A DNA stretch of 64,000 nucleotides, from IMG/VR virus record IMGVR_UViG_3300038393_002936; one strand, written 5' to 3'. A program made the translations under genes and the position numbers. This document shows positions 9,162 to 56,379 of the stretch, piece by piece. The notes under the pieces are model-generated. The model searched no databases, had not been told where the DNA came from, and worked only from the letters and a program-made list of their open reading frames with translations. How positions within the stretch are numbered: the first letter of the stretch is position 1; the number at the start of each line of letters is the position of its first letter. This DNA comes from a virus.

Positions 9162-9170
9162 CGAAGTCAG
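9133..9170 (+). repeat. Mini-hairpin pair attached to TTCCGGCAG
   Basis: TTTCCGGCAG GTCGGC-TCC-GCCGAC G TGAC-GAA-GTCA. Confidence 0.75.
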
Positions 9171-13200: not shown

Positions 13201-16200
13201 CTTGTTAGTTTTTATCGAGTCGAGACTTTGCCGTTCTTTCTCCAGCAAACTCGAAATACCGCTGACGTCCTCGTTACGGAGCCCAGTCCCCGCCAACAAC
13301 CGGGACTGTCGAGCTTCGTGCGGTGCGGTCAGGTCTTCGAGCGATAAAAACCGACTCGCGTCACCACCCCCCAGGCGTTCCGACCGGCTCACCGCCAGGG
13401 CCCGCGTGAGCCCCAGACGAGCTTCGGCAAGTCGGTCCTGTTCGGAGCCGACCGTGCTCGCGTTCTGCCGCACGGTGGATAGGCCGGTCGCATAGGCCAG
13501 GTTCGCCTCCTGGATGCGGCGGGCAATCTCCTGGCTGTAAGCCGCAGCCTTGGCGTTATCGACGTTCAGGTTTTTGGCCGCCCCCTGCGTATCGTGCCCG
13601 ATGTAGGGCAGGGCGTTCCCGCCGTGTTGCTGGTCCAGTTTCCGGACCTGAGAACTGACGTTCGCGATTGCCAGCCGCAGTTCCGGGTTCTCCTTCAGGG
13701 CCTTCTCCCGAGCCTCGTCCGACATTTCCGGCAGGAGAGATTCCCGCAGGCCCTTCTCGACCCGCGTGTGCGTCGTGTGCTCGGTCGAATTCCCTTCCCG
13801 GACGAGCTGGTCCAGAACGCTGGGCAGAATTCGGGCGATGTCGTCGGCGGCCTGACTGCTCCTGACCAGTCCCTTCCCTGCCGGACCGAGCATTCCCCCG
13901 ACCACGCCGAGGGCCTCGCGGAAGCCGCCCGGGTTGGGGGCCCCGAGAATACCCAGGTTGTTCGCGTAGTTCGGGGCACCCACGGGCGTGTGCCCGCCAA
14001 ACGCGAGCATTGGTAAATCTAGTTTGGTCTTAAAATCATTCAATGATGCAGAAACGGCATCGAACGCCACGACCAGCCGACCCGCCGAGTGCGCCTGCCG
14101 CTCGCTCACCACCCGGGCGTCCTCTACGGCCTTCTGGCCGGCGAAGTTTCGCTGGGCCTCACGCACGTCCTGTGCCATTTCGTTTAGGATTTTTGCCAGC
14201 GGCACATTGCGGATGTCGGCAACCACTCTCAGCAGTTCACCCCGGACGCCCTTATTGAGTTCGTCCACCAACTCCTCGGGCCTCGCCTCCGGCCGGGCCT
14301 TGGCCAGTCCGGTCGCTTCGGACGACAAAATACTGGCGAACCCACCCGCTTGGTTCGCGAGGGCTTTGCGGAGTTCGAGAGTCTGCGCCTTGGCCAACAC
14401 GTCCGAGTCCGGCGTTTTCCGCCAGAAACTGCTCGAATTTTCGAACGCCCGCGTGGTCGCGGCTGCTCGGACCTCCCGAATATCGCTGATGATGCCGTAC
14501 CGGTTGGCGCTCATCAGGCCTTCCTTGCCCTCGACCACCCGCCGCAAATTCTCGTTGAGGTGTTCGGTGGCGTTCGCCGCCTTGGCCTCGGCCAGGTTCT
14601 TCGAGGCGTCCTTTAGAGAGGTCGTAAACCCGTAAACCGCCCCGATGGCTCCGCCGATAGCCGCCCCCCACGGGCCGAACACCATCCCCACGCCGGCTCC
14701 CATCGCGCCGTACTGGAGGGTCCCACCCGTCACCGTTTGGTTCGTAAAAGAGGATTCGGCACCACTGTTGCCGACCGCCCTCGCCGCCGCTCCGTCTTCC
14801 GGGCTGAACGCCTGACCGATGAGCGGAGCGGCCATCATACCGGCGTAAGCCGCCCCCGCCCCGCCACTTCCCCGGATGCGACCCAGGGCACCCGACCCGA
14901 CGGACACGACTCCGGCCGCCTGTCGACTCAGCCAGCCCCCTTGTCCCAGTCGGTCGGCCAGCCGCCCGAACCGCCCCCGGCCACTTTCATCAATCGTGCC
15001 GCTGAACCAGCTCCGCCGGGTCGTTTCCGTAATCTGTTGACCCAGGTCGGCGAGCCCGACAACTTTCCCGTTCCTGTTTCGAATCACCTGGGCGTTCGTC
15101 CGGTACGCCTCTGCCGCCATTTCCTCGGCGATGGCCAGTCGTTCTTGGGCCTTGAGGGCGGGGGCCAGTGTCTGAAGCTGTCGACGAATCCCCGCGGCTA
15201 ACTCATTCTGGGCCTTTGAGACCTCTCGACCGGCTAGGTTGGCGGTCGCAGCGGGGGCCAGGCCGCCCAACCGGTGCATCTGGGCCGCATCCAGGGACGT
15301 AGCCCCGCGGGCATTGGCGATATCGGCGAATCCGAGTCCGGTCGGACTGAGCGGCCGGTCCCGGAACCGTTCCCCGGCCAGGAGGTCGTTCAGGCGGAGA
15401 CGGGCCCTGAAGGTATTGACGGCACCGTCACCGGGACCGTTCGGCGGGGCCACCGCCGGCAGACGCCCGGCCAAGAAATCGCGGACCGTCAGCGGGTTAT
15501 AGGCCACCGACCCGCCCGGCCGGTACTGAGTTTCACGGTGTCGGTACGGGGACGGTTCCCCCTCGACACTCAGGAGGGACGCAGCCGCGTTCGGCGTGAT
15601 GGGGCGGCCGGGAGCATTTCCGAAACCGTACGTGGGTCCGACCGGACCGGGTTCGCCCGGCCGGTATCCGGGGCGGTTCGTCGGGGACTGGCCGCGTCCG
15701 ATGGCCGGCATGAGGCCGTACGGGGCCGGGAACAAACCCGTTTTGGGAGAGGACGGGGATTCGACCCACGGGTCCGTCCGGAAGCCGATAGGGGACCCGG
15801 CGACCGGGTCCCGCAAATTTCTCATTTCCTGCCGGAATCGCCGTTCCACTTCCTTTTCGGCGTACCCCGGGATGACGGCCCCCCGGCCCCCGCTCAGGTG
15901 GACGTAGCCGGGCGGCAAAGACGGGACGTGAACGAGCGGGTACGACGGCCTGTCATTATTTGACGGAGCCGGACTTCCGGCAGGAGAGGGAGGGGCCGGC
16001 GGTGGGGGCGGAGGTAACGGCGGCTGGCTCCCCGAAGTGGCTGGACCAGTTCCGCCGGCCTTTCTCGCCTTCAGCCACGCCGTGAGGGAGGCCGGGTTGC
16101 CCAACTGGACGCCCGCCGTGTCCCCGGTCGTATACGCGGCAGTTCCCTTGAGGGCCGCCTGGCGAATTTCATTGGCCTTCGCCTTGCGACGGGCCACTTC

Positions 16201-19200
16201 CTCCTCGGTCCTGCGGACCTCGTCGGCACTCAGTCGCTGGAGGGCTTCCTCCGCGGCGGCCGGGGCATGCCGCTTGTGCGAATCGGGGTTGTTCTCGGCA
16301 CTGGTCAGGCTGACGCGACTGAGGTTTTTGCCGCCGAGCCGCCCGGCACCGTAGTGCTTGTTGAGTTCGTCCTTGACCTTTCGCTGGGCGGCCCGGAATA
16401 TCAAGGCATTAATATTGCCCTTCGAGGGGTCGTACCCGACCATCACGGTGCGGGCCGCGTCGTGGACGGCCCCCAGGGCGTCTTCCCGGCCGAACGTGGG
16501 GTGATTGCGGCTGAGGTTGGCCGCGAACCGCTCCAATAACCCAGGGTTCTTCTCCAGGTACTGGGTGAAAACGTCCCGCTGATTGTTAGTGAGGGCGGTC
16601 CGGGTTTTCGGCCGAGCCCGGCTCGCGAGTCGGCCCAGAACCGCCTGAATCTGGTTATCGCCCTTCCCGGTCAGGAAGTCCGCATGGGCTCGGGCGAATC
16701 CCTCCTTGTCCGAGTACAGGTACTGGGATTCTTTTTCGCTCAGGATGCGGCCCGCCTTCAGCATCTTTTCGCGGGTCGCCACCACGTTAGCCTGGGCCAC
16801 CTGCCTGGCACTGTCGTCACTGAGCGAGGCCGCCTTGCCGCCGCCCACCTTATAGTCGACCGCGTGCCCCAGCTCGTGGGCGAGCACCTCACGAAGTTCG
16901 TCGGCCGTCTTGATGCGGTCCTGGTTCAAGAACAGGTTCCCGCTCTTGTTGGCGTACCCGCCTCGGGCCACCTTCCCGGGCTGGACCGCCAGCGAGCGAT
17001 TGAAGAGAGCCAGGGTCTCTTGGTCCAACCCTCGGTGGTTAACAATAAGACGCTTGAACAGACTCTTATAGTCAATGCCGGTCTTTGTTTGAAACTCTTG
17101 GAGGATGCTGTTGATATTGGCTTCGGAGACGACCCCACTCGCCCCGGCACTAATCAAACCACCGTCGGCGAACCGGGGAAGTCGGCCCGTCCGGTTCATG
17201 TAGCGGACGCGGTTAATGCCTAGTCCTTGGACTGCGTTGCGGTTCAGTACGAACTCGCCGTCCTGCGCAAGAATTTCGACACTATCAACGCCCCGAGTTC
17301 CGCCCCGTACCTGCCCGCCGCCCGCGAACTTCCGCTGTGGTTTTAGGCCGAGTGGAGAACCTTGCACGACGGCGACTTGACTGCGTTCGGTCTGGCGCCG
17401 CTGGACGTATTCCAGTAGGTCGTCCTGGCCCACGCCCGTGGCGAGCGAGAGAGAAGACACGAGCTCGGCGACCCGCTCTCGTTTGCCGAGCGTCCGCCCC
17501 ACTTTGCGGCCGACCGCAGCCACACCGCGACCGACGAACCCGCCGAAAGCGTACCGCGGGAATCGACCCGTGCGGTTCAGTTCCTCGACCCGCCCCCGCC
17601 CCAGTCGGTCCACCGCGGCCTTCCGCAGCACATACTCGCCCTCCTGGGCCATGATGGGGACACTGTCGACGCCGGGGGTGCCGCCGTGGACCGGGCCGCC
17701 GGCCGCGAAGCGGCGGGTCGGAGCCCGCGACGACCCGTACAGTTCGGGGGTCAGCACACCCGTCGCAAACCGCCCGGCCCCGCCCATCAGCCGTCCGATA
17801 CCCAGGGCCGCGACTACCGGCAGGAGAGGGCCCAGGGCCTTGACGAGTTCCGAGGCCGCTGTGGCCGCCGTGGTGAGCCCGTCAGAAAAAGCCTTAAAAC
17901 CTTTTGACTGAATTAAATCATTAGCTAATTGCTGATAAGTTTCTTTTACCTTAGTTAATTTTGCGATAAAAGAATCTTGCCGAATTGCGGCGGCCGTCTC
18001 TATCGACGCCGCCCCCAGCCTGGCAACATTAAGTGCTTTTTGCGATTCCCCGAACTGCTGGATTAACGGCAGGACGCGAGACACTTGCCGGATGCCGCCC
18101 AGGTCTTCCACTATCTGGGCGTACCGGAAATCGGTGCTCCGGAGTTTACTGAGTCCTTCCGAAAGTCGCTGCACGGCTCGGAACTGGCCCACGAACTGGT
18201 CGGTCAAATCTTCCTGGCCGAGGGCGCGGGCTTCTTCCTTAGTATAACGAAGGTTAATTCCTAATTGTTTTAGATTCTCTATAGTATCAGAGCGTTGCAC
18301 ATAGGTGAATATGCTCCGGAGCCCGGTCGCGATTTGGTCGGCCGATTCCCGCGTGGTCGCTCTGACGCTTGTAAAAAGTGCCAACAGCTCGTTTAGTTGC
18401 CCTCCGGCCGTGGCAAACGCACCGCCGCTTTTTTGCACGGCAGTGATTAAATCCTGGCTCTCGACAGCGAAGGTCGCGGCGACCGCATTTACCGAGCCCA
18501 GTTGGTCTTTCAGCTTTTCGGTGTCCTTGCCGAACTGCTGAAAAATCGCAATCATCCCCTCCGTGGTTTTGCGGGCGTCCGCGAAGGACGGACTGGACAA
18601 GGCGAGGGCCAGTGTCTCAATAGCCTGAGCACTCTGTCGAGCATTAAGACCAGCTTGTACGAAACTCTCCGCCCCGGCCGCCAAATCGCGACTGGCCACG
18701 CCGTATGTGGTCGCCAGTCGGCCAATCTCGGCCCGCAGGCGAGACACGCCCCTCTGCCCATCGTCAGACACTTGCAATAGCTTATTCATTGCAAGGTCAA
18801 ATGAGATTGCTTCCTTTCCGACCGCTTTGAGGGCATTAACAGCCGCGAACATCCCACTGGTCGCCACGCTGAAGGCCACGAACCTGCGGCCCGCAAGGGA
18901 GACCTGTCGGCCGAAATTTGTCACCGAGTCAGAGGCCTCGGCGTAGGCCGCGGACGCCCGGCGGGCCGCTCCGGCAGAGGTGGTCAGGCTCGCGACAGAC
19001 GCCTGGGCCAGGGGGTTCACCCGGGCGTAGGCGGTCGCCATCTGGCTGATTCGACTGGTTGTCGATGCCGCTTCTCCACCAAGGCCTCGCATGGCCGCCC
19101 GCAAAGCATTCATGTTTTGGGCGAGCGCGGCAATTTCACTTTTGGCTCGGGGCGAAATTTCCAGGTCGATTTTTCCCGACAAGCCGCTAATTGCCCCTTG

Positions 19201-19272
19201 AATTTGCGAGCGAATGACAGAAGTCGCGCCGCGGGCGAGATTTAAGTTAATCTGGGAGTTAATCAAAAACAC
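10210..19272 (-). CDS. Tape measure protein, 3020 aa, multidomain
   Basis: TP901-type core (ESQDLITAVQKSGGAF...TRESADQIATGLRSI), Ala/Gly-rich helices, TM-like segments, repeated [FY]AxGG...DSV.AML..GE[YF]V modules; lies downstream of tail tube and chaperones. Confidence 0.9.
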   Translation of the reverse strand: MFLINSQINLNLARGATSVIRSQIQGAISGLSGKIDLEISPRAKSEIAALAQNMNALRAAMRGLGGEAASTTSRISQMATAYARVNPLAQASVASLTTSAGAARRASAAYAEASDSVTNFGRQVSLAGRRFVAFSVATSGMFAAVNALKAVGKEAISFDLAMNKLLQVSDDGQRGVSRLRAEIGRLATTYGVASRDLAAGAESFVQAGLNARQSAQAIETLALALSSPSFADARKTTEGMIAIFQQFGKDTEKLKDQLGSVNAVAATFAVESQDLITAVQKSGGAFATAGGQLNELLALFTSVRATTRESADQIATGLRSIFTYVQRSDTIENLKQLGINLRYTKEEARALGQEDLTDQFVGQFRAVQRLSEGLSKLRSTDFRYAQIVEDLGGIRQVSRVLPLIQQFGESQKALNVARLGAASIETAAAIRQDSFIAKLTKVKETYQQLANDLIQSKGFKAFSDGLTTAATAASELVKALGPLLPVVAALGIGRLMGGAGRFATGVLTPELYGSSRAPTRRFAAGGPVHGGTPGVDSVPIMAQEGEYVLRKAAVDRLGRGRVEELNRTGRFPRYAFGGFVGRGVAAVGRKVGRTLGKRERVAELVSSLSLATGVGQDDLLEYVQRRQTERSQVAVVQGSPLGLKPQRKFAGGGQVRGGTRGVDSVEILAQDGEFVLNRNAVQGLGINRVRYMNRTGRLPRFADGGLISAGASGVVSEANINSILQEFQTKTGIDYKSLFKRLIVNHRGLDQETLALFNRSLAVQPGKVARGGYANKSGNLFLNQDRIKTADELREVLAHELGHAVDYKVGGGKAASLSDDSARQVAQANVVATREKMLKAGRILSEKESQYLYSDKEGFARAHADFLTGKGDNQIQAVLGRLASRARPKTRTALTNNQRDVFTQYLEKNPGLLERFAANLSRNHPTFGREDALGAVHDAARTVMVGYDPSKGNINALIFRAAQRKVKDELNKHYGAGRLGGKNLSRVSLTSAENNPDSHKRHAPAAAEEALQRLSADEVRRTEEEVARRKAKANEIRQAALKGTAAYTTGDTAGVQLGNPASLTAWLKARKAGGTGPATSGSQPPLPPPPPPAPPSPAGSPAPSNNDRPSYPLVHVPSLPPGYVHLSGGRGAVIPGYAEKEVERRFRQEMRNLRDPVAGSPIGFRTDPWVESPSSPKTGLFPAPYGLMPAIGRGQSPTNRPGYRPGEPGPVGPTYGFGNAPGRPITPNAAASLLSVEGEPSPYRHRETQYRPGGSVAYNPLTVRDFLAGRLPAVAPPNGPGDGAVNTFRARLRLNDLLAGERFRDRPLSPTGLGFADIANARGATSLDAAQMHRLGGLAPAATANLAGREVSKAQNELAAGIRRQLQTLAPALKAQERLAIAEEMAAEAYRTNAQVIRNRNGKVVGLADLGQQITETTRRSWFSGTIDESGRGRFGRLADRLGQGGWLSRQAAGVVSVGSGALGRIRGSGGAGAAYAGMMAAPLIGQAFSPEDGAAARAVGNSGAESSFTNQTVTGGTLQYGAMGAGVGMVFGPWGAAIGGAIGAVYGFTTSLKDASKNLAEAKAANATEHLNENLRRVVEGKEGLMSANRYGIISDIREVRAAATTRAFENSSSFWRKTPDSDVLAKAQTLELRKALANQAGGFASILSSEATGLAKARPEARPEELVDELNKGVRGELLRVVADIRNVPLAKILNEMAQDVREAQRNFAGQKAVEDARVVSERQAHSAGRLVVAFDAVSASLNDFKTKLDLPMLAFGGHTPVGAPNYANNLGILGAPNPGGFREALGVVGGMLGPAGKGLVRSSQAADDIARILPSVLDQLVREGNSTEHTTHTRVEKGLRESLLPEMSDEAREKALKENPELRLAIANVSSQVRKLDQQHGGNALPYIGHDTQGAAKNLNVDNAKAAAYSQEIARRIQEANLAYATGLSTVRQNASTVGSEQDRLAEARLGLTRALAVSRSERLGGGDASRFLSLEDLTAPHEARQSRLLAGTGLRNEDVSGISSLLEKERQSLDSIKTNKDKAEGNPERFAQLSREFEATVQRTQNLQEALRNLADAGKRGAAIQERLNTINSDRDNRLSFAEKFIMASPEERQKMRRGQTLAAQVAQDPELFKRMSEENKRLFIQASHDIGPSQFKNGFTGDSLRNFVLEDTGIVPPEMRRGRQKLTDENARVAGVSVRAQGGIAADLVKANDWVKKFVQGARDTVVSGLATQSVYEQRRQTQSMISSQALEKNRLNEQVNLRKVLGAVGIEGTDASVKEAQRYFPDLKKYFEKLDEVNAPGEDREKARGYLQRSAGGNETDLLHASREERRLIFSRILDSSKIGKDLLPEYKSNAIDEAANGSLFMDINEKLGHRSKELGRSLTPEERQDTMNDVAAERLHGAVFRRVDTVKGWARDEMDKAAGELRLGKISPEGLAGINREDRAKLMSALDPEKKSESIQGLDKLDENLRNVNKELAALGTMLSDLNKQLPAQPQHRAQGGLINWSPRGSDVVPAMLSPNEYIINAKSSVANRPLLHAINNARGPLDDSRFVADGDDRKRRIIRGAMGTYETIRQGMVSAADWLGLARGGVVPQYLAAGGVARKLTKEDEARARDMERAQRGAAAEGATNPFDTFFLGGWNHKQADKIEGDIARYKEALKKSKTPAEERLYREAIKDARTKFAESNKKAIFETSYNPNGEAGLDRMHHQLEKQGRALIAKGKLKAEDLGLYMARNLAQVNARRQVGSLLEQQAYAGAGGLPGEDEVYGGVVARLQHREAEDQALFMQKFGRGFWDVHRDVAHRMAERADQRAADVAWKKAQRAALKRPTKGKLPIAPAPRPKNNPPLDRHFLVSAPTEPIHRFAAGGLVTSGSPNYDSTLAMLEKGEGVVSRAGMQSLGASGLASLNRGGSPGGSDGSSRASDAAAKMGESAARFNEGMSGFNNSVTTMNSGFSRFESTVDKLVTSLDKIPTHIEYSGQIDVNLVGGAVAQPGVSDAVKAEINRQIRSMMGGEFNRRMPEATAPLASDSGSLR

Positions 19273-19390
19273 GTCTTATTATCCAAATTTTTCGCGAGTC
19301 TCCTTCTGGTTAATACACCGCCCGATTCCGCGAGATTTGTTACCGTGCGGCGTGAGCCAACCTGTCTTTTTAAGTTCGGCAAAAACAAGA

Positions 19391-19418
19391 TTGACCTAGC
19401 TGTTTTTTACGCTAAAAT
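19391..19418 (+). promoter_or_regulatory. Sigma70-like promoter of the HNH gene
   Basis: TTGACC-N16-TAAAAT, followed by a GGAGG ribosome-binding site before the ATG at 19455. Confidence 0.55.
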
Positions 19419-19454
19419 ATAATCCAGAGGCAATCCATCGGAGGTTTTTATGAC

Positions 19455-20438
19455 ATGAGCGAAGTCGAAGCGAAACCCCTTGGTGAGGGGGACCGGTTTG
19501 GATTTTGGGCGGTAATCAAAAGGGACACAAAAAGGAATGGGAAGTGGCATTATATTTGCCGCTGCGGCAAATGCGAAGGGCTTGTTTCGGTACTGAAACG
19601 CTCTTTGCTTCTCAGCAAGAGCACGCAGTGCGCCGCATGTGCCCAAAAAGAAAGGACGAAATACAAAAGAGAGATTCAATCCGGGGAAATGTTTGGCTCG
19701 TGGAAGGTGCTGCGTATCCACTCAAAGGATGACACGTCCAGGGTTAAATATGTATGCCTTTGCACAAAATGCAATAGAGAATTTATTATCTCGTGGTCAT
19801 CTCTTACTTACAAAAAAAGCGAGGCCTGTCGTGGATGCCAAAACAAAGAAAAAATTTGCGATAATAACAAAATACCACCAGGAACAAAGTTTGGCTTCTG
19901 GGAAGCCCTCTATTTCGATAATTCACAAAAGGGGAATAGATATATTTGCAAGTGTCATCGGTGCCAAAGCGAGCATTCAATTCCAGCTACTTACTTGAGA
20001 AATAACAGAACCAAACAGTGCGAAACATGCTACAAAAGAAAAAAGGGGAAATTGAGCTCAAAATGGACCGGATATCAAGACTTGTCAGGCAGTATGTTCG
20101 GAAGGTATAAAGCAGGGGCTAAATGGCGACAAATTGAATTCAACATAACAATTGAATACGCATGGGGCCTATTCGTTAAGCAAAATGCCCGCTGCGCAAT
20201 TAGCGGCGTACAACTTCATATTAAGCCGAGTGAAAACAACGAGGTAACCGCCTCGCTAGACAGAATCGACTCTGCCGCCGGATACATCGTCGGGAATCTC
20301 CAATGGATACATAAAAAATTAAATGCCATGAAAAGTGACTACTCAATTGAAGAGTTTATAAGTTGGTGTCATTTAGTCGCCGAATCTAACCCTCGGCCAA
20401 GTCAAAAACTCGCGACCGAACCAACAACCGCTGCCTGA
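19455..20438 (+). CDS. Free-standing HNH-type homing endonuclease
   Basis: Three G..FG.W...Y.C.C..C repeats plus CAISG...SLDRIDS..GY..GNLQW.H..N.MK; AT-rich; antisense to the late operon. Confidence 0.8.
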   Translation: MSEVEAKPLGEGDRFGFWAVIKRDTKRNGKWHYICRCGKCEGLVSVLKRSLLLSKSTQCAACAQKERTKYKREIQSGEMFGSWKVLRIHSKDDTSRVKYVCLCTKCNREFIISWSSLTYKKSEACRGCQNKEKICDNNKIPPGTKFGFWEALYFDNSQKGNRYICKCHRCQSEHSIPATYLRNNRTKQCETCYKRKKGKLSSKWTGYQDLSGSMFGRYKAGAKWRQIEFNITIEYAWGLFVKQNARCAISGVQLHIKPSENNEVTASLDRIDSAAGYIVGNLQWIHKKLNAMKSDYSIEEFISWCHLVAESNPRPSQKLATEPTTAA

Positions 20439-20446
20439 GCCGCCAA

Positions 20447-22751: not shown

Positions 22752-22831
22752 CTTCCCTGCCGGACCTTCGGTCCCGTCGGTTGCGCCGACTGTGGAAGCT
22801 TCGCTTCCGTTGACGAAGTCAACTGCCGGAA
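22752..22831 (-). repeat. 80-bp four-hairpin array inside a split TTCCGGCA...GGCAGGGAAG motif
   Basis: Minus strand: TTCCGGCA GTTGAC-TTC-GTCAAC GGAAGC-GAA-GCTTCC ACA GTCGGC-GCA-ACCGAC GGGACC-GAA-GGTCC GGCAGGGAAG. Confidence 0.9.
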
Positions 22832-28671: not shown

Positions 28672-30288
28672 TTACTTGACGTTGTTCTTGGTCTTCTTGC
28701 GGGCGGAAGCCCGGGTGGCCTTACCGGGACGTTTGCCGTCGCCCGGGGCGTCCTGGTCGTCGCCGTCCGGGTCGTCACCCGGGTCCTTGTGGCCGAAGTA
28801 GTTCAGCATTTCCGAGGCGAGGGCCTGGGCCGCGTCGTCGGCGGTCGCGGTCGAAGTGGCCGTCAGGTCGACCTGGGTTTCAGCCGGCTTCTGGGTGGCG
28901 GAGGTAACGGCGGCAGCAGCAGCCGCAGCCTTTTCGGCCTCGGTGGGTTGGACCGCAGGGGCGGGCGGCGGGGGAGCAACAGCGACCCCCTTCTTGAGTT
29001 CAGTAATCGTCGCGAGATGAGCCGCGAAGGCCTCGTCCGGCAGGGAAGCGAGGGTGGTGACCGTGGCCAGGGCCTTTTCGTCGCTCTCGAACCCGTACGC
29101 GGTCCGGACCTGGACAACCCGGTCGGCCTGCTTGCGGGCGGCTTCGGCCTTCGCGGTCTCTTCCTTCACCTTGTCCAGCTGGGCGGCGAGTTCGGCCTTG
29201 GCGGCTTCGGTCGTCGCGAGGGCCGTCTTGGCGGCGGTCAGTTCCGCGTCCTTGGCGACCAGCCCGGCCTTGGCCGTCTCGAGGTCGGCCGCAATCGCGG
29301 TCTTGGCCGCGGTCAGGTCTTGGACCTGTTTCTCGAAGTTCGCCTGGCGGGCCTCGTCCAGCTTCTTGTTGGCCTCGGCAAGCTCGGCCTTAAGTTTATC
29401 AAGCTCGTTCACTGATACTTCCTTTTGGTCGGCTTTATTATTGCCGCTGGCAGTCTCATACCCCGACACGGAAAAAACTTTCGAAATTTTCTTGGCGGTC
29501 GCCCCGGAGGTCGGGGGCAGGATGACCGACTGAGGGTTCGCCGGCACCCGGACGAGCCCTACGCCCGAGAACGTCAGGTTCTTAAAGACACGAAGAACCC
29601 GGCGGTCCCGATACTTGCCGGTCCCGCCGTAAGCCCTCAAATGTTTGGTCAAAAAGGCGGTCGAGTCGTTGCGTTCGACGAGTTCGGCGTCGGCGGTCGC
29701 GATGGCTGTTCCGTCGGAGCCGGCGGGCTTCGCCAGCAAATAATCGAACCCGCGGAACCGGCACTCCATCGAGACGAACCAGGCGTTCTCGGGGGTGGGA
29801 TTATCCAACTCCGCAATCGCCCGGTTCATCCACTCCTGGCGGTCGGGGTAGCCCGGCCAGTGCCGGTACAGAACCGCGGAGCCGCCGACGTGAAAGGCGT
29901 CGGGAGCACTGTCGCCTGTGAAAACCGAGCCGTCCTCGGCGAGCACGCGAGCGGCGGTCATATGCCCGATGACCACGGCCGCCTTGTGTTCTTCGTTGAA
30001 GGGTTTGTCAACGGGGGACTGTCGAGCACCCCAGGTCTCGGCGGTCGTGAAAAAGTCGTCGTTCAGGTTGGCCCCGGTCGAGGCCAACACGAAATCAATC
30101 GGGTACAGGTCCGGCAGGGAAAGGTTGGTGCCCGAACCCGCGGTGGCCCTCAACCGGTCGAGCGTGTCCTGGTTGACTTCCCTGCCGGAAAAGACAGCCC
30201 GACTGGCGGTGCAGACGGACGCACTGGCGAGGATGAGGGGCTCGAGGCCGGCGTCGATTTCGTCGCGAAAAACCGTCACGGAGTCCAC
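28672..30288 (-). CDS. Prohead protease-scaffold fusion
   Basis: N.NDDFF, KPFNEEH...IGH, VSMEC, F.GVGLV..PAN protease motifs, then an Ala/Lys/Glu coiled-coil scaffold; possible internal start at 29412. Confidence 0.8.
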   Translation of the reverse strand: MDSVTVFRDEIDAGLEPLILASASVCTASRAVFSGREVNQDTLDRLRATAGSGTNLSLPDLYPIDFVLASTGANLNDDFFTTAETWGARQSPVDKPFNEEHKAAVVIGHMTAARVLAEDGSVFTGDSAPDAFHVGGSAVLYRHWPGYPDRQEWMNRAIAELDNPTPENAWFVSMECRFRGFDYLLAKPAGSDGTAIATADAELVERNDSTAFLTKHLRAYGGTGKYRDRRVLRVFKNLTFSGVGLVRVPANPQSVILPPTSGATAKKISKVFSVSGYETASGNNKADQKEVSVNELDKLKAELAEANKKLDEARQANFEKQVQDLTAAKTAIAADLETAKAGLVAKDAELTAAKTALATTEAAKAELAAQLDKVKEETAKAEAARKQADRVVQVRTAYGFESDEKALATVTTLASLPDEAFAAHLATITELKKGVAVAPPPPAPAVQPTEAEKAAAAAAAVTSATQKPAETQVDLTATSTATADDAAQALASEMLNYFGHKDPGDDPDGDDQDAPGDGKRPGKATRASARKKTKNNVK

Positions 30289-31291: not shown

Positions 31292-33529
31292 TTATTCCTC
31301 GTCCTCACATACACCGTCGTCGTCGTCGAACGTGACAAGTGCGTACGCCATCGCCCGCAACTGGCGGGTCTGGTCGGCGGCCGGAGGCTTCCCGTATTCG
31401 GCCACGTGCCGGGCGACCGCGGTCTGAACCAGTTGGTCGACGGCCGGGAATACGCGGGGGCCGGCGGCGAGAGCGGCCCGAACACTCTCGGGGCTGGCCG
31501 GCGAATTGACCGCGTGAGCACACAGGACGCCCAACTTGACCCGCTCGAAGGCCTCGGCGTCGGCGTCCGTCAGTTCCCGGGCGGTCTTGAGTCCCTTGGC
31601 GGCCAACAGAGACGGCCGGAGGACCTCGTCGACCGTCTTGAGGGTCGCGTCGGCCCACAACGAGGCCCGAGCCAGGGCGGCCGAAGCCTGTTTGGGAGCC
31701 GGTCGCTTGGTCTTACGTTTGGCCTGGTCTTTGGACCCGGCCGGTCGCCCGTTCGGCTTGGGGTTTTTCTTGTCGCCTGACGGCGCACCTCCGGCAGGTC
31801 GGCTTCGCCGACGTGAGCTTTGCTCACCAGGAGAGGGAGCAGTAGGACGCTTGGCCGGGGGAACCTCGCCGGGCTTGGGCGGGGGCAAGTCGAGCCCGAC
31901 CTGGGACGGGGTCACCTCGCCCTGGCCCAATAGGGTCTGGTGAAGCTTCGCTTTTTGCTGAGAGTCCTGGTGGTACGGCCCGGCCTTCGGCGGCAAAGCC
32001 CCCTGCTCCCGCTTCCGCCCTTCCTGCCGGATACGGGCCTGCTCGATGTCGGGGTCGGCCCCGAACCGCTGCTGGACGTAGGTCGCACTGATGACATCGC
32101 GGTCGATGAGGTCCCTCAACAGGGCCTTCTCGGCGGCATCGTCGGACAGGTCGGGGACCGCGAACGACAGGCTGAACGGCTGGCGGAACCCGAACGTCTG
32201 CCGGAGAATCTCGAGCTCGCCCAGCCAGAACTGCGAGAGCACCATCCGGGCGTACTGGAGTCGTTCGACGAGCACCCGCAGGGACACAAAATTGTTCGTC
32301 ATCCCGGCGTCGGTCATCGCCCCGGTCAGGGTCGGCGGGACCCCCAGGCCGATGAACAGGTTCTGCATGGTCTGGGCGTACTTGTCCTTGCCCAGGAACC
32401 GGTAGATTTCCGTGCCGGTCTCGACCAGTTCGAGGTCGGGGCCCCAGACCAGGTCCATGCACCCGCCGCCGGTCGAGTGCAGGAGGATGTCCGCCAGCAT
32501 TTGGCAGGCTTCCTGGTTCGGGATAATCTCCTTGTCGAGGTTCCCGAGCTTCCACACGCGGACGTGCGAGATGGCCCCGTCGAGGGCACTGCGGTCCGCC
32601 ATCCGCAGCTTCTCGAACATCTGGAGGTCGTCCAAAACCGCGTTCAAAAGCGGCGTGGCCCAGACCTCGTCGTCGTCCTTCTTGTACTGCAAAATAACGG
32701 TTTTGTTGGGTTCGAGCGGGACCCACTTGTCGTTGACCATCCGCTGCCGGAGGGCGGCCGGGATGCGGCTAACTAGCTGCTTGTCGGCGACACTCCGCGG
32801 GGTCGTGATGCGTTTGAGGAGGGAGTCCGGCGGACGGACCGCGTACGTGACGACGTCGTCGCCAATGAACTGGGCCAGTTCCCCGCCGATGGCCTCGACG
32901 GTGACCGGGTTCAGGACCTTGTAGCCGACCGGAATCTCGCCCGGGGGTAATTTCGTCCTATCGGAACCATTATCGGCCCCCACCGCCGCAACAGCCCGTA
33001 AGGAGGCTATGTCGTTATTGGCCAGTTTGGCAGTTCGACGCCTGATGGGGGCGACGGCTTCACGGAAAAGTCGACGGACAATCCGGTCGCTCACACCGGC
33101 GATATCGGCTTTTTTGGCCCACTCTCGCCCCCACGCCTGGACCTTGGCGGCCGGGTGAACGACCTGGATTCCCTTGTTCACGAAATCCGTCATCATGTCG
33201 ACGGTATTGCGTACAATGGAGAATCGCTTATAGGCCATCTGGCAGGCGGACTGTATCCCGTGAACTTCGGTCGGGAGCCGCTCGCCCGGCCGGAAAAAGT
33301 CGTAATCCTCGCGGTTGAACCCGTCACGGACCGAGATGCCCGGCTTGTCGATGTTCCGGAACGTACCGATGGCGGTCGCCCGTTCGGCGCCCTGGGCACT
33401 GCGGCTGGCGACGGCCCCGTACCCGACCGCGGCGGCGTTCAGAGCGGCCTGCTTGCCCTTCACGTCGCTGGACTTAAAGGTCTGGTAAAGCGGGCGTTCG
33501 GGACTGTTTTCGGGGCGAGTTCTGCGCAT
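31292..33529 (-). CDS. Portal protein
   Basis: Follows the terminase; IVRNTVDMMTDF, W.TPLL.AVLDDL...KLR.AD, GLGVP..L motifs; low-complexity C-terminus. Confidence 0.85.
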   Translation of the reverse strand: MRRTRPENSPERPLYQTFKSSDVKGKQAALNAAAVGYGAVASRSAQGAERATAIGTFRNIDKPGISVRDGFNREDYDFFRPGERLPTEVHGIQSACQMAYKRFSIVRNTVDMMTDFVNKGIQVVHPAAKVQAWGREWAKKADIAGVSDRIVRRLFREAVAPIRRRTAKLANNDIASLRAVAAVGADNGSDRTKLPPGEIPVGYKVLNPVTVEAIGGELAQFIGDDVVTYAVRPPDSLLKRITTPRSVADKQLVSRIPAALRQRMVNDKWVPLEPNKTVILQYKKDDDEVWATPLLNAVLDDLQMFEKLRMADRSALDGAISHVRVWKLGNLDKEIIPNQEACQMLADILLHSTGGGCMDLVWGPDLELVETGTEIYRFLGKDKYAQTMQNLFIGLGVPPTLTGAMTDAGMTNNFVSLRVLVERLQYARMVLSQFWLGELEILRQTFGFRQPFSLSFAVPDLSDDAAEKALLRDLIDRDVISATYVQQRFGADPDIEQARIRQEGRKREQGALPPKAGPYHQDSQQKAKLHQTLLGQGEVTPSQVGLDLPPPKPGEVPPAKRPTAPSPGEQSSRRRSRPAGGAPSGDKKNPKPNGRPAGSKDQAKRKTKRPAPKQASAALARASLWADATLKTVDEVLRPSLLAAKGLKTARELTDADAEAFERVKLGVLCAHAVNSPASPESVRAALAAGPRVFPAVDQLVQTAVARHVAEYGKPPAADQTRQLRAMAYALVTFDDDDGVCEDEE
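31790..31835 (+). repeat. In-frame mini-hairpin pair splitting the repeated motif inside the portal gene
   Basis: TCCGGCAG GTCGGC-TTC-GCCGAC GTGAGC-TTT-GCTCAC CAGGAGAG. Confidence 0.85.
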
Positions 33530-33574
33530 TCCAACTACGTTGTGTTTACAGTTCCACTGTGGGTTGACGCCCAC

Positions 33575-35794
33575 TCATACACCACCGCGGATGACGACCG
33601 CCCCACCGTACCCCCGCGACCCCAACTTGTTGGTGAACCAAGGTGGGGCCTGGTAGAGAGGTCCGCCCTCGGTACGGGCCGCCGGGTTGGTCGAGGCGAT
33701 TTCCGAAATGAACCCGCCGACCCCGCCCTTGTAGGTGAAGACGGGGAGGGCCCGGGCGAGCTGGCGGGCCCCCATGTTGGCCATCAGGAGCGCGCTATAG
33801 CGGTCTTTGCGCATCCGCCCGGCTTTTGACCCGGGCACCTTGCGGTCGGGTGTGTCCCAGCGGCGGAGTCCGGTCGACGACTCGGACACCTCAATGGTGG
33901 CCAGTTCGTCTTTCAATTTCTCGATTTCCAACATGGCCTGTTCGAGCGTGTCGTAGGTCTGGTAGACCTTCTCCCCTCGCTCGTCCTTGCCCACGCGGCC
34001 GGCGGCCTCGTCGGCGATTTCGGTCAGGCCCAGCGTCAGCGAGTTGAACATGGGGAACAGGAGCACCCGGTCTTCCAGGTCCTTCTTCATCCCGTCGTTG
34101 GCCTCGACCACCCAGGCGTTGTCGCGGAACACGACCATCTCGAGCAAATGGTCCCCGGCCAGGTTGTCGGTCGGCTTCTTGTCCTTCGGGTCGACCACTT
34201 CGTAGACGGGCAGTTCGCCGGGTTCGAGCTTGTCCGGGTCCCCGAAGGCTTCCCGGAGCGTAATCCCGCCACCGCCCGCGTCGACCAGCACCCGAGCGGG
34301 CGGAAAGACCTTGAACAGGTCGCGAATTTTCCGCACGCAATAGCGGAAAAAGTCGTGGTCGCCGACCATCTTCTTGCGGAGCTTGTTCGTGTGGTCGGCC
34401 TTGCGAGTGGTCCAGCAGTACACGACGCGGCGGTGCTCGGGCCAGATTTCCACGATGACGACCGCGAACCGGTCGTTTTCCGAGGCGGGGTCAATTCCGT
34501 ACACGTATTTACAGTTGCCACTGGCCTGCAAGGCGGCCGTGAACTTGACCGGCCCACACGACGCGAACGAAACGGGGTCGGGGTCGTCCGGTTTGCCGAC
34601 CACACATTTTTCAATCAGGGAACGCTTGTAGAAACCGTCGGAGTCTAATGCCCAAACGCAATTGTATTCAAGATTAAATTGAACAGAATTCGTAATCCGC
34701 TTGGCCCGCGCAATAGTGGCCTCGTCCATGTACCCGGGCGGGACGAGCGCGTAGGGCATGCGGATGATGCTATACTGCCGCCAGTCGAAGCCGGACGGGA
34801 CGGGTCCGGTGAAGATTTTTTCCAGCTCGTCCTTTTTCCCCCGCGACTCGATGAATGTCTTGTATTCCTTCCAGTACCGGTAGAAGTGGTTGAAGGCGTA
34901 GGTGGTCGTACCCGATAGGACGCTCTGGTTCCCCCGGACCCGCTTGGCCTCGTCGGCGTCCATCTCCGCCGTCCACATCCCGAGCCGCTTCAGGAGGCGG
35001 ATGCGGGCCCCATCCATCACGTTCCCGATGGGGTCGGCGGTGACCGACGCGAACCCCTGGACGACGACCGCGTACACTTCTTCCAAAATACTTCCGACTT
35101 CGTCGGTCAGGATATAATTACCACGAAGACCGCGAATCTTTTCGCCCGACCCCATCGGGATGCCGATAATGGACGAGTCACCGATAATGAACTCGACTCG
35201 GTCAATGTCCCGCCGGGGGCCGCACTTCCGACCGCCCGTCCGTCCGGACCGGACCAGGCTCTGGAAGACCGGTGAGTTGTGCCAAATCCGCTCGATGTAC
35301 TCGAACACGGCCTTGGCCTGGCGAAACGCGGCGGCCGTGATGACGATTTTGGCCCCCGGGGTAAAAGTAGCACGAAGAATTGCATATAATGCTAAAATAA
35401 AGCTCTTTCCAAATCCTCTAGTACCGATTAGCATAGGGAACTGCCGCCACCACAGTTCCCGGAGGGCGAGCTGTTGGAAGGGTAGGATGGTCAGCGGGCC
35501 ACCGCCGTCCGGTCGGCAGAAGAGCGACCGGCAGGTAAATGGGAAGAAATTGGGGTCGCGGAGGAGTTTGAGCAGGTGGATGTGCGGGTTGTCGAACTCG
35601 AACCGGGTCTTGGGGACGAGCGGCTGGTCGGGCGACGGCGAAATGTCCAGCAGGGAGAGGGCCTGTCTTGCCCCTTCCGCTCCGGGCTTAATCGAGTCCC
35701 ACTGTTCGGGACTGAGGGCCCAGGCCTCTTCCGCCATCCGGAACAACACATCGTGGTCTGCCGTGAAGACCGGCTTATTTCGACTGACTGCCAT
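33575..35794 (-). CDS. terL: Terminase large subunit
   Basis: Walker A GTRGFGKS, IRGLRGNYILTDE Walker B, RNase H-like GIDPA and KDRYSAL. Confidence 0.92.
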   Translation of the reverse strand: MAVSRNKPVFTADHDVLFRMAEEAWALSPEQWDSIKPGAEGARQALSLLDISPSPDQPLVPKTRFEFDNPHIHLLKLLRDPNFFPFTCRSLFCRPDGGGPLTILPFQQLALRELWWRQFPMLIGTRGFGKSFILALYAILRATFTPGAKIVITAAAFRQAKAVFEYIERIWHNSPVFQSLVRSGRTGGRKCGPRRDIDRVEFIIGDSSIIGIPMGSGEKIRGLRGNYILTDEVGSILEEVYAVVVQGFASVTADPIGNVMDGARIRLLKRLGMWTAEMDADEAKRVRGNQSVLSGTTTYAFNHFYRYWKEYKTFIESRGKKDELEKIFTGPVPSGFDWRQYSIIRMPYALVPPGYMDEATIARAKRITNSVQFNLEYNCVWALDSDGFYKRSLIEKCVVGKPDDPDPVSFASCGPVKFTAALQASGNCKYVYGIDPASENDRFAVVIVEIWPEHRRVVYCWTTRKADHTNKLRKKMVGDHDFFRYCVRKIRDLFKVFPPARVLVDAGGGGITLREAFGDPDKLEPGELPVYEVVDPKDKKPTDNLAGDHLLEMVVFRDNAWVVEANDGMKKDLEDRVLLFPMFNSLTLGLTEIADEAAGRVGKDERGEKVYQTYDTLEQAMLEIEKLKDELATIEVSESSTGLRRWDTPDRKVPGSKAGRMRKDRYSALLMANMGARQLARALPVFTYKGGVGGFISEIASTNPAARTEGGPLYQAPPWFTNKLGSRGYGGAVVIRGGV

Positions 35795-36266
35795 ACAAGT
35801 CAACGATTCGCTTGAACAAGGAAAGGGCGGCCGTACGGCCCTGTTGGCCGACGAACTCGACCCGCAGCCGGGGGTGGGCCAGCCGCATCTCGTGGTAGGT
35901 CTTGATGAGCAGGTCGGGCCGGACCTTCAGGGACCGCCATTTGGAAGGCGGGACGCCCGAGCCCCGCGGGTACTCGACCAGTTGCTTCCACTCGAACTCG
36001 AGGAACAGGTAGGGGTGTTCGAACTCGTCGAGCCGCTCGAGTTCGCGATGGAACCGGGGCTGGAATAAATTCTGACAAAATTCTGACGATGAGAATTTCC
36101 TCTCCAAACAAAACACTTTCTCAAAACCCTTGACCGTATAATCTCCGGTCGAAAGGGTTTGCACTTCTGTCCCAAGGCATCGCGCCCGAGCCTGAAAAAT
36201 CCAGCCTTCCTGTTCGCGGGTGTCGCGAATGACCGTAAATTTAACTTCTTCTTTTTTGGGCGGCAT
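35775..36266 (-). CDS. ERCC4/XPF-family nuclease
   Basis: DTREQ...L.TGDY.....CLERK...RF.RELERL signature. Confidence 0.85.
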   Translation of the reverse strand: MPPKKEEVKFTVIRDTREQEGWIFQARARCLGTEVQTLSTGDYTVKGFEKVFCLERKFSSSEFCQNLFQPRFHRELERLDEFEHPYLFLEFEWKQLVEYPRGSGVPPSKWRSLKVRPDLLIKTYHEMRLAHPRLRVEFVGQQGRTAALSLFKRIVDLYGSQSK

Positions 36267-39095: not shown

Positions 39096-39676
39096 GCGAT
39101 GACTCTCACAGCGGCTTCGACCTTTTTCCGGCGACTGGTCGGCAGCCGCTCACCGGCCAACATTCGCAAATAATCCGAGCGAAGCGTGGGGTCGAGTTCC
39201 CGGTCGATTCTGCTACGCAGTTCGTCGAACGAGGCCAGTTCGGCGGCCCTATCATCGGCCTTGAGCCCGCTCTCGCGGTCGTCGGCAATCCCGTCCAGCG
39301 AAAGCGGCCGGGTCAGGTTGGCCTTGGTCGCGTTCCGCTTCTTCCAGGCCAGGTACTTGCGGCAGACCTTGCGGTCCGCGTGCTCGCTTTCGCGACCCTG
39401 GTGGCACAAGTTACACGGCGGGTCGGTCCGCCTATAATTATCACGCTTGAAGTTAATAAGCCGGCGAACGGCGTGTGTGTACAGATACTTTTCGAGCGGC
39501 CGGGATGGGTCGTACTTGCCTTTGGCAAGCAGTTCTAAGCAGAACACTCGTGTTTCCTGCCGGACGTCTTCGGCCTCCAGGTATCCAAACACGAACTTGT
39601 CGGACGCCTGGTTAACAACCTTCTCGATGGCCTCGAGGACACTTGCCTCGGTGTGGCCGGGCGGAATTTCCATCAC
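39062..39676 (-). CDS. Phage-encoded sigma-70/ECF-like factor (candidate late sigma)
   Basis: EAEDVRQE...KYDPSRPLEKYLYTHAVRRLINFKRD region-2 pattern; inserted Cys/His loop; short C-terminal region. Confidence 0.75.
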   Translation of the reverse strand: MMEIPPGHTEASVLEAIEKVVNQASDKFVFGYLEAEDVRQETRVFCLELLAKGKYDPSRPLEKYLYTHAVRRLINFKRDNYRRTDPPCNLCHQGRESEHADRKVCRKYLAWKKRNATKANLTRPLSLDGIADDRESGLKADDRAAELASFDELRSRIDRELDPTLRSDYLRMLAGERLPTSRRKKVEAAVRVIACPSNPPKADA

Positions 39677-48995: not shown

Positions 48996-49024
48996 TTGAC
49001 TCACGCTGTCGTTTACACTATTTT
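48996..49024 (+). promoter_or_regulatory. Sigma70-like early promoter (copy 1 of 3)
   Basis: TTGACT-cacgctgtcgtttacac-TATTTT. Confidence 0.6.
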
Positions 49025-49128
49025 AAAGCATTGCTCCGGCAGGAAGGGGGGCAGTGGGCGGGAAGACTTCCAATCCCCCCATCAAAGCTTCCTAGGGATA
49101 TTTCCAACTCCGCCAGGGGACGCAGTCC

Positions 49129-49353
49129 ATGGACCCCGCACTCTGCTACGACGAATTCTTCGACGCCCTCAAGGCAGGTCGCCTATCGGAGGCCTGTGAC
49201 AGGGCGGACGACCTCGAACAGTGGTTTCGTAAAGGCGGCTTTGTTCCGCCAAAGCTCGAAGCCCGAAAGATGTCGGCTCCGCTTTTAGCGGAAATGTTCT
49301 TTCAGACCAGTTTGGTCCTGATGTGGGCTCGGTCGGACATCGAGGACGACTAG
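49129..49353 (+). CDS. Hypothetical protein, family P1 (paralog of 51159-51383)
   Basis: MDP..CYDEF.DALKAGRLS.ACDRADDLE.WFRKGGFVPPKL. Confidence 0.7.
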   Translation: MDPALCYDEFFDALKAGRLSEACDRADDLEQWFRKGGFVPPKLEARKMSAPLLAEMFFQTSLVLMWARSDIEDD

Positions 49354-50664: not shown

Positions 50665-50693
50665 TTGACAATCGCTGTTATTTACACTATTTT
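50665..50693 (+). promoter_or_regulatory. Sigma70-like early promoter (copy 2)
   Basis: TTGACA-atcgctgttatttacac-TATTTT. Confidence 0.65.
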
Positions 50694-50750
50694 ACGAAAA
50701 CCGCACGGGACGCAGTCCCGACGCAGGGCAAAGCCCCGACAGGAGCAAGC

Positions 50751-51024: not shown

Positions 51025-51053
51025 TTGAGACACGCTGTCGTTTACTCTATTTT
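51025..51053 (+). promoter_or_regulatory. Sigma70-like early promoter (copy 3, weaker -35)
   Basis: TTGAGA-cacgctgtcgtttactc-TATTTT. Confidence 0.5.
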
Positions 51054-51158
51054 ATAGCATTGTTCCGGCAGGAAAGGGGGCAGTGGGCGAGCGAACTTCC
51101 AATCCTCCCCATTAAGGCTTCCTAAGGATTTTTCCAACTCCGCCCGGGAGCGAAGCTC

Positions 51159-51383
51159 ATGGACCCAACAGTCTGCTACGACGAGTTCCTCGACGCCCTC
51201 AAGGCGGGTCGTCTGTCGGTAGCCTGCGACCGGGCGGACGACCTCGAAGGGTGGTTTCGCAAGGGCGGCTTTGTCCCGCCGAAGCTCCAGACACGAAAAA
51301 TGTCAGGCTCAGTATTAACGGGAATGTTCTTTAAGACCAGTTTGGTCCTGATGTGGGCTCGGTCGGACATCGAGGACGATTAA
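51159..51383 (+). CDS. Hypothetical protein, family P1
   Basis: Near-identical to 49129-49353. Confidence 0.7.
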   Translation: MDPTVCYDEFLDALKAGRLSVACDRADDLEGWFRKGGFVPPKLQTRKMSGSVLTGMFFKTSLVLMWARSDIEDD

Positions 51384-52612: not shown

Positions 52613-53682
52613 ATGTGCAGTAGCTGGCAGGCGGGCCTGGTTGTCGCCCAAACCACTCCCAAGGAACGGGCAGACACCAACAACGGCCTGCGATGGGCCA
52701 CTTACCGAGTCCGCCGAATCGACGCGGCCGAGCACCAACTATTGAGGGTGGCCGGGACCGTCGGTCAGTTCGCCCCCTTTCAGCCTTTCGTGCTGGAGGT
52801 CCAACGCACCAAGACTGAGGGGAGCCAGGTCGACGAAGGAAACTGGGAATTCTGGGCCTCGGGTGACAGCCCAGAAGCGGTCATTAACGAGATGTTGGGG
52901 GACACAAGCTTCCTCGAAGCCCAGTCCCTACATCCACTGCATGCGGAGCTGGTCGCCGCGACCCGCGAACTGCGAGAGGCCCAGGACCAAGAATATAGTG
53001 CCGAACGCCGCATGAAGGCCGCCCACCAGGTAGTCCAGGACTTTAAGGACGAGAAGAACCGGGCGTATGCGGCGAAAATCGCCGGCATCACGGACGAGGA
53101 CAAGGTCCGGGAGATTGGCAAACGCATGCTGGCCTCGGCACTGCCTCGATTGGAAGAACTCAGACGAGAGGCGACCGAGGCCGATGCCGCATTCCGGGTC
53201 GCAACGAAGAAGGCGGAACAGCTACGGGCACGCGACAAACAACTTTCCCACCGGACCTCCGGTCAGGTCAGCGAAGCTGACTGCCGGAACGAGGATTGAC
53301 CATGCAAAACCTGCGAATCTTCTCGGCCTTCGTCTCGCCCGACGCCGTTTACGAGCACCCGCCGGACTTGCCGACGAACCCGAAGGAACTGCCAGAAGGC
53401 CCGATTGAAGGATGGGAGTGTTACGCGAGCGTATTCGGAGAATTCCGGTGTGTGAGGCTCAAGGCGGAAATCAAGTTCGAACAGACGCGGGACTCGGGCC
53501 GAGTGCCGTTCATCAGGGCCGCAGGCAGCCAGTTCTACTTCAAAGAAAAAGGCCCGGCCGGACACCCGTGCTGGTATCAGAGTGGGTTCACGCTGCGGTT
53601 CGTCCGCGAACAGCAAGACGCACATGATGTCGCGACACAGCCACCAAAACAGCTCCGAAAACTGCTCGAGGACGACACATGA
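52613..53682 (+). CDS. Two hypothetical ORFs (52613-53299 coiled-coil; 53302-53682)
   Basis: GAGGAG/GAGGA RBS; coupled. Confidence 0.55.
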
Positions 53683-56312: not shown

Positions 56313-56379
56313 TTCCGGCAGGAAAGGTTAATAGGGGTGATTGGATGGATAACCACAACACTCCCCTCTCCTGCCGGAA
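56313..56379 (+). repeat. Composite element: motif A > motif B > spacer < motif A
   Basis: TTCCGGCAGGAAAGG TTAATAGGGGTGATTGGATGG ... CTCTCCTGCCGGAA; inverted homologs at 57055-57130 and 59681-59743. Confidence 0.8.

Follow-up and report, generated by a model that had tools for sequence, protein, structure and literature searches.

A strain-variable 33-nucleotide double hairpin in a phage portal gene, a candidate miniature mobile element

The DNA considered here is a 64-kb stretch (the window) from an uncultured tailed phage whose genome measures roughly 165 kb, recorded in IMG/VR as IMGVR_UViG_3300038393_002936; contigs encoding the window's proteins reach 165,690 nt. Its portal gene contains two small, perfect hairpins placed back to back, which together with three further nucleotides form a 33-nt segment (31797-31829) that is very probably a secondary, in-frame insertion into a pre-existing copy of a 13-nt word, here called motif A. 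This reading is carried by a sister portal protein from which exactly the encoded 11 residues are missing, and by a family of like units that occupy the same step of the same word elsewhere in the window.

Results

Layout and coding of the portal cassette

Motif A is a set of TCCGGCAGGRRAG-type 13-nt words (TCCGGCA|GGAGAG, the bar marking the step at issue), of which the window holds 38 copies on both strands. The portal cassette splits one of them, lying antisense within the portal open reading frame (ORF), and its parts are as follows.

31292-33574, minus strand: portal ORF, matching portal family PHROG 2739
31790-31797, plus strand: left part of motif A (TCCGGCAG), with the insertion point at or beside CA|G (between 31796 and 31797)
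31798-31812, plus strand: hairpin 1, GTCGGC-TTC-GCCGAC, perfect 6-bp stem and 3-nt loop
31813-31827, plus strand: hairpin 2, GTGAGC-TTT-GCTCAC, perfect 6-bp stem and 3-nt loop
31828-31835, plus strand: right part of motif A (CAGGAGAG), in which CAG recurs

Read on the plus strand, positions 31790-31835 have the order that an earlier note on this DNA had described from the letters alone, namely TCCGG-CAG, two abutting perfect 15-nt hairpins, and CAG-GAGAG. The same note had held that taking out 33 nt would restore the repeated word and keep the frame, and indeed the deletion yields TCCGGCAGGAGAG while the insert itself is 11 stop-free codons of the portal frame. These add an Arg/Ser-rich segment, GEQSSRRRSRP, at residues 583-593 of the 760-aa ORF (APSP[GEQSSRRRSRP]AGGAP), to a disordered linker in which the pre-existing motif A copy encoded SPAG. 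On the minus strand, the portal sense, hairpin 1 contains GCGAAGC, the core of an exceptionally stable DNA mini-hairpin (PMC13037366).

The recorded portal product, P0124, has 745 aa and begins at an ATG at 33529, which is likely the true start. The protein collection holds 768 portal homologues and, among the matches listed, nearly all are about 700-750 aa long. An AlphaFold2 model built on the portal alignment is of modest quality overall (mean predicted local distance difference test, pLDDT, of 61). In it, residues 576-628, which include the insert, fall below a pLDDT of 50 and have no secondary structure, and residues 629-748 form a confident C-terminal helical domain. The segment that bears the insert is thus predicted to be a disordered linker joining the portal core to a conserved C-terminal helical domain. 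The suggestion that the insert was tolerated as a multiple of three in a low-complexity tail holds for the 11 codons and for the disordered surroundings, but not for the tail, which is a linker in front of a further domain. A promoter and terminator scan around the cassette gave no promoter-like site and nothing above chance, and Rfam and tRNA scans found nothing.

Presence and absence among relatives

The nearest portal relative, P0002 (734 aa, on five JGI contigs), belongs to a sister haplotype and reads ...TAPSPAGGAPS... across the site. In a global alignment, P0124 and P0002 differ only by the substitution G437S and by a gap of exactly those 11 residues. Among fragment proteins of the same 90% cluster, P0125 (with G) and P0126 are filled and P0123 (with S) is empty. 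The filled allele occurs on two contigs and three fragments and the empty allele on five contigs and two fragments, as two portal haplotypes, one combining the insert with G and the other the lack of an insert with S. The insert is polymorphic among near-identical strains. The empty site of the sister strain is known from protein sequence; a search for its DNA with P0002 as query gave no match in viral and metagenome contigs, and tblastn gave none in the phage collection.

When the portal is aligned with its 16 best homologues, the 15 other than the sister (38-54% identity) have no residues in the insert columns, and L115, a 51%-identical relative that is syntenic over 13 kb, is 14 codons shorter at the insert site. 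An 11-residue indel among portal homologues had been anticipated by the earlier note, and it is present as the exact gap in P0002 together with the absence of residues in 15 of 15 others; the contrary pattern that the note had named, conserved residues with synonymous changes that break the hairpins, was not seen in the aligned homologues.

The other genes of the window needed below are these.

10210-19272: tape measure protein, 3020 aa
27099-28133: major head protein, weak match
33575-35803: large terminase
59772-60761: C-5 cytosine methylase gene

The major capsid protein (MCP) and the large terminase (TerL) are identical between the two lineages, with the MCP (344 vs 333 aa) and another protein (78 vs 74 aa) differing solely by the called start codon, and five small proteins are unchanged on 8-11 contigs. 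No further indel was found between the sister proteins that were compared. The sister tape measure protein is of equal length and carries 52 substitutions, all within residues 1-504, and 1 in the remaining 2516 (505-3020). Leaving this patch aside, about three differences appear over the roughly 17 kb of coding DNA compared. The 33-nt indel is among them even though only about 40 target words are available, and this points to a high rate of gain or loss per site.

The divergent tape measure patch coincides with a region of low G+C (0.53) at 17760-20440, and the neighbouring ORF at 19455-20438 has a third-position G+C (GC3) of 0.47; the patch looks like recently recombined foreign DNA. A motif A copy at 17816-17828 sits about 20 codons inside its boundary.

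The 74 ORFs of the window include an ERCC4 nuclease domain, helix-turn-helix proteins, and a weak match to sigma-70 region 2. Names on distant homologues (Gemmataceae, Urbifossiella) hint weakly at a planctomycete host.

A family of 33-nt double-hairpin units

The portal insert is one member of a family whose unit consists of two abutting 15-nt hairpins (6-bp stem, 3-nt loop) plus 3 nt, with loops that are usually C.G-closed and read C-GNA-G on one strand. From CA|G to CA|G the distance is exactly 33 nt in eight of nine units and 32 nt in the remaining one, and the base after every unit is G. Whether single or in tandem, units come immediately behind (T)TCCGGCA or behind another unit, and the one at 57025-57067 follows AGCA. 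The 33-nt family is tied to CA|G junctions. Its other members are listed here.

9134-9171, plus strand: TTCCGGCAG followed by two hairpins, right motif half missing
22752-22831, minus strand: four-hairpin array (2 x 33 nt), paralogous to that at 59614-59693
53243-53289, minus strand: one 33-nt unit after TTCCGGCA, running antisense to the final 16 codons of gene 52613-53299 (product P0127, identical on 11 contigs)
57025-57067, plus strand: one 33-nt unit whose second hairpin takes the TCC of motif A as its 3' arm
59090-59132, plus strand: one 33-nt unit after TTCCGGCA, its second hairpin overlapping the next TCCGGCA
59124-59168, plus strand: a second split motif A, reading TCCGGCA, two hairpins, CAGGGAAG, with a 32-nt filling
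59614-59693, plus strand: four-hairpin array (2 x 33 nt) bounded by TTCCGGCA and GGAGAG; the C-5 cytosine methylase gene lies 79 nt downstream

Of the first 19 inserted bases, 18 are shared between the cassettes at 9134-9171 and in the portal, which shows that dispersed copies are related. The earlier note had proposed a secondary insertion accompanied by a duplication of CAG. The exact gap in the sister protein bears out the insertion; the duplication does not stand as a separate claim, because every unit boundary within the arrays also reads CA|G and a duplicated CAG is therefore indistinguishable from the ends of a G...CA element that entered at CA|G.

In many units the second hairpin is GGACC-GRA-GGTCC, with the TCC of the next motif A as its 3' arm. 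When single strands are folded, the motif halves pair and close a multi-branch junction around the hairpins, and the long arrays fold far better than their shuffles (z = -3.3 for 59614-59693 and z = -3.6 for 22752-22831). The two arrays are paralogous, and their hairpins 1 and 2 have changed in a compensatory way. All six stem positions change on both sides among 22 aligned hairpins, a set preselected as hairpins, so that the paralogue comparison is the only independent evidence of covariation.

Perfect 6+3+6 hairpins number 50 in the window, where third-order Markov simulations give 24 +/- 5, and abutting perfect pairs occur three times (expected 0.015). The hexamer CCGGCA is followed within 0-1 nt by a perfect hairpin at 7 of its 122 sites (expected 0.045); with one mismatch allowed there are 14 double hairpins against 1.3 expected, 11 of them at CCGGCA. 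A C.G-closed loop reading G/A-N-A on one strand is found in 28 of the 50 perfect hairpins, and the heptamer GCGAAGC occurs 25 times (expected 12.9 +/- 3.7), one copy being that in portal hairpin 1. The association of hairpins with the motif is beyond chance.

Some units also lie at gene ends. The unit at 9134-9171 supplies the stop codon of a Fic-domain gene (9167-9796, minus strand), and both it and the unit at 53243-53289 provide coding ends and are fixed, on 10-11 contigs. The C-termini of P0127 and its homologue do not align. A double hairpin of another type (50706-50738; CGGGAC-GCA-GTCCCG, 3 nt, and a second hairpin) begins 13 nt after a strong sigma-70-like promoter at 50665-50693.

Motif A, the target word

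Allowing for no more than one mismatch, the window holds 24 copies of the 13-mer TCCGGCAGGAGAG, where 0.18 would be expected. About half of the motif A copies lie in coding DNA, in five different reading frames (for example 30110-30122, 29036-29048 and 39552-39564), and distances to starts range over 0-86 nt. The residues that coding copies encode are conserved in place in L115, with NLSLPDLYP identical at window position 30110; by this comparison, the coding copies are not insertions. The tripeptide LP[ED] is written in motif codons at 8 of 17 occurrences (expected 2.8), and PAG takes the motif form at 9 of 20 (expected about 0.9). Given this codon choice at residues that are conserved in L115, motif A seems to have been kept or spread at the DNA level by point changes, in the manner of uptake words or of stoperator and SAS-type words (PMC3203893).

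Intergenic copies are often convergent pairs that make long stem-loops, and two copies begin about 11 nt after sigma-70-like -10 boxes. One convergent pair forms an 80-nt stem-loop at 30110-30189. A 538-aa structural gene probably has its true start within this stem-loop, at about 30153, and its conservation with L115 starts at 30150. Composite elements at 56314-56378, 57055-57130 and 59681-59743 consist of an inverted motif A pair around a second conserved box (CCAATCCCCC..TTAAC); their shape resembles that of REPINs or of MITEs (miniature transposable elements with inverted repeats), two are fused to hairpin arrays, and half copies lie near 49035, 51064 and 61015. An expression cassette is duplicated at 48996-49130 and 51025-51160. 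In each copy, motif A lies 11 nt downstream of a sigma-70-like promoter (TTGACT/TTGAGA, 17 nt, TATTTT); the second box is also present, as is a GGGAGC-GAA-GCTC hairpin in which the ribosome-binding site lies immediately ahead of the ATG. The CCGG within motif A is a frequent target of C-5 methylases, and the methylase gene at 59772-60761 lies directly downstream of the largest array.

Distribution outside this phage

Neither motif A nor the hairpin units were found in the portal-family loci examined from IMG/VR and metagenomes; L115 has no motif A system and no arrays, and a 19-nt array junction word had no match in IMG/VR. Since the syntenic L115 and the other loci of the portal family lack both motif and units, the system appears to be specific to this lineage and not a conserved portal or regulatory feature.

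Several candidates from other genomes were set aside. Single matches of the 19-nt junction word in species genomes, 34 in number and none with motif A, are due to chance. Hairpin pairs in L039, L040 and L044 are collagen-like Gly-X-Y coding repeats, those in L100 are operator-like palindromes, and both are unrelated to the units described here; the top repeated word of L115 is a tandem coding repeat. In passing, a promoter-like element of roughly 40 nt occurs six times on the same strand of locus L036 (450-3500), and L100 has paired copies of the palindrome CTGCCATTTTGGCAG (300-4200). One exact TCCGGCAGGGAAG is present in L115 at 2336 on the minus strand, in a locally G+C-rich part of this relative of 37% G+C and outside the syntenic block; it may be due to chance (about 1 in 300) or may be a trace of shared history.

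Discussion

A mobile element directed at motif A

We lean towards the view that the unit is a non-coding, non-autonomous mobile element made of two mini-hairpins and directed at CA|G within motif A. In such a scheme, a nick or cut at CA|G would open motif A, and a folded single-stranded unit would be joined in at that step; alternatively, repair for which the motif flanks (8 + 5-8 nt) act as primer might copy in a filled motif A from elsewhere. Either way, CA|G would be regenerated on both sides, which would allow further units to stack into arrays and would make the precise loss of a unit possible. The acting enzyme may come from the rest of the roughly 165-kb genome or from the host. It is tempting to speculate further, and more tentatively, that motif A is the recognition or nicking site of a phage or host enzyme and that the unit is a self-propagating, non-coding DNA parasite that enters and leaves CA|G as folded single-stranded DNA. 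If so, it would be the smallest site-specific mobile element known in a virus, one that stacks into arrays, remodels 5' leaders, and adds 11-residue segments to proteins.

Several points weigh against a mobile element. Presence and absence were established at one site and from protein sequence; the 74 window ORFs include no transposase, HUH/Y1 enzyme, TnpB, integrase or other recombinase; and the window holds no identical donor of the portal cassette, the best matches sharing its stems and differing in a loop base. In addition, the stems are diverse, which is unexpected for a simple copy-and-paste element that has recently been active, and a number of arrays sit in sense orientation upstream of genes, where they might serve as functional leaders or regulatory structures.

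Alternative explanations

The direction of the change might be the reverse of that proposed. The cassette would then be the older state at this site, and the sister would have lost it by a precise slippage deletion between the CAG repeats, aided by the hairpins; even then, the cassette would have arisen as a secondary insertion into motif A. Palindromic stretches such as this one of 30 nt, set between 3-nt direct repeats, are a classical substrate of slipped-strand deletion, and each portal haplotype has one private change. The empty allele is on more contigs (five plus two fragments, against two plus three fragments), a count that gives no polarity. We nevertheless consider such a loss unlikely, as the segment is lacking from all 15 of the more distant homologues (the nearest available outgroup standing at 54% identity), and the filled haplotype, which has G at the substituted site like P0008 and P0010, is not obviously the older one.

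A second alternative takes the hairpins as functional phage signals, either for leader or translation control tied to motif A or for single-stranded initiation or priming by primase on GCGAAGC, with ectopic gene conversion between motif A copies yielding the portal copy as a side effect. Two arrays, at 59614 and 22831, do sit 79-86 nt upstream of sense genes and are paralogues with compensatory changes, and the two motif A copies about 11 nt past -10 boxes, the excess of GCGAAGC, and the codon choice that keeps motif A on residues conserved in L115 (as if the word were selected or driven) would all suit a signal. Precedents exist as well, in mini-hairpins at phage priming and promoter sites (PMC13037366) and in the SAS/ESAS repeats of Cluster K mycobacteriophages (PMC3203893). 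However, the portal copy is antisense in a structural gene and optional between strains, the 53243 unit is antisense in a coding tail, and promoter-like sites are overall not above chance (9 vs 7.3 expected). Motif A, in contrast to SAS, is found on either strand and within coding DNA, and the system is absent from the syntenic L115. We take this signal account to be unlikely.

Selection for the basic 11-residue protein segment itself is very improbable: the linker is already rich in Lys, Arg and Pro and varies in length among homologues, but the peptide is fully set by two perfect DNA palindromes and a restored genome-wide word, and alleles that lack it are common. That the insert is an artefact of assembly or sequencing is scarcely credible, for although stable mini-hairpins disturb sequencing (PMC13037366), contigs and fragments taken together record the filled allele at least five times and the empty allele seven times, and each allele goes with its own substitution.

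Comparison with known elements

Full-text literature searches for comparable elements in phages found none. Closest in form and behaviour to the mobile element favoured here are mitochondrial double-hairpin elements (DHEs; cited in PMC7218506 and PMC4478555) and yeast GC clusters, and, for residence in frame, the palindromic elements of Rickettsia. DHEs are said to have been described in 2000 by Paquin, Laforest and Lang from Allomyces and other fungal mitochondrial DNA. Reportedly, they consist of two adjacent short hairpins, are non-coding and optional between close relatives, and lie both between genes and in frame within them; we know of no transposase for them. The phage unit is likewise two abutting 6+3+6 hairpins plus 3 nt with no coding capacity, and it is optional at one site in close relatives, as seen at the protein level. 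By description, it differs in its phage host, its fixed 33 nt, its exact CA|G step in a 13-nt word repeated throughout the genome, and its C-GNA-G loops.

A second family of hairpin elements, IS200/IS605, moves by 'peel and paste' and, together with its miniature derivatives (PATEs) and the REP/REPIN-RAYT systems, has hairpin ends that are recognised as folded single strands; insertion takes place next to a short fixed sequence, without true target duplication, and excision is precise. A single-stranded mechanism of this kind fits the CA|G rule and the exact empty allele, but no Y1/HUH gene was found among the 74 window ORFs, and the unit has no room for guide sequences between hairpin foot and junction. 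REPs themselves are extragenic and tagged by GTAG or CGTC (PMC3733652). A REP or REPIN identity is ruled out, as the portal and 53243 copies are intragenic and the 22 hairpins start with GTCG, GTGA, GTTG or GGGA, with no conserved tag; no RAYT (Y1 transposase) was found among the ORFs of the 64-kb window, about 100 kb of the genome lying outside it. A MITE is also ruled out, because the unit is two separate palindromes with ends G...CA and has no terminal inverted repeats.

Yeast GC clusters such as GC42 are short, G+C-rich hairpin elements with a 2-nt repeated target (AG), found singly and in tandem (PMC4478555; Weiller et al. 1989, cited there). They are polymorphic between strains, their stems are more conserved than their loops, and their mechanism is unknown (PMC4478555). 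The phage units, too, occur singly and in tandem arrays. CAG stands on both sides of the phage unit, but CA|G also joins stacked units, so that a duplicated target and the unit's own ends would look alike. GC42 is a single hairpin of 42 nt that sits in AT-rich DNA and has a loosely defined target, whereas the phage unit is two hairpins in 33 nt with a 13-nt target word. The Rickettsia palindromic elements (Ogata et al. 2000) are palindromic repeats tolerated in frame in many protein genes (PMC10969869), as the phage unit is in the portal gene. These, however, are about 100-150 bp long and belong to a bacterial chromosome, with no fixed target word reported (PMC10969869), and the phage unit measures 33 nt.

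Two further likenesses concern parts of the system. In shape alone, the hairpins recall the promoters of N4-type virion RNA polymerases (5-7-bp stem, 3-nt loop); hairpin promoters of this kind are ruled out, the 3020-aa ORF being a tape measure protein and not a virion RNA polymerase. For motif A, although not for the unit, an analogue is offered by SAS/ESAS in Cluster K mycobacteriophages and stoperators in Cluster A, 13-bp asymmetric words with 10-40 copies per genome and a GGAG-like core (PMC3203893); some SAS/ESAS copies are just upstream of start codons, with inverted repeats upstream (PMC3203893). Motif A shares with SAS/ESAS the length of 13 bp, the many copies and the GGAG-like core. 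Unlike SAS, which has one orientation and lies 3-8 bp upstream of starts, it occurs on both strands, about half in coding DNA, at 0-86 nt from starts.

Significance

Very short, non-coding mobile hairpin elements are known from mitochondria and a few bacteria, and, as far as we are aware, how such tiny elements move has been unclear for decades. The portal cassette seems to be among the smallest pieces of mobile DNA known from viruses, and it makes a sharply defined case, in which a fixed 33-nt unit meets an exact target step in a 13-nt word and both filled and empty alleles exist in near-clonal strains. In a small genome that could be passaged and deep-sequenced, the mechanism would be directly testable, through nicking, single-stranded hairpin intermediates, and rates of gain and loss. 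For annotation, the portal cassette is a warning that perfect palindromes inside genes need not be regulatory; for the phages themselves, it represents a route by which structural proteins may gain linker insertions.

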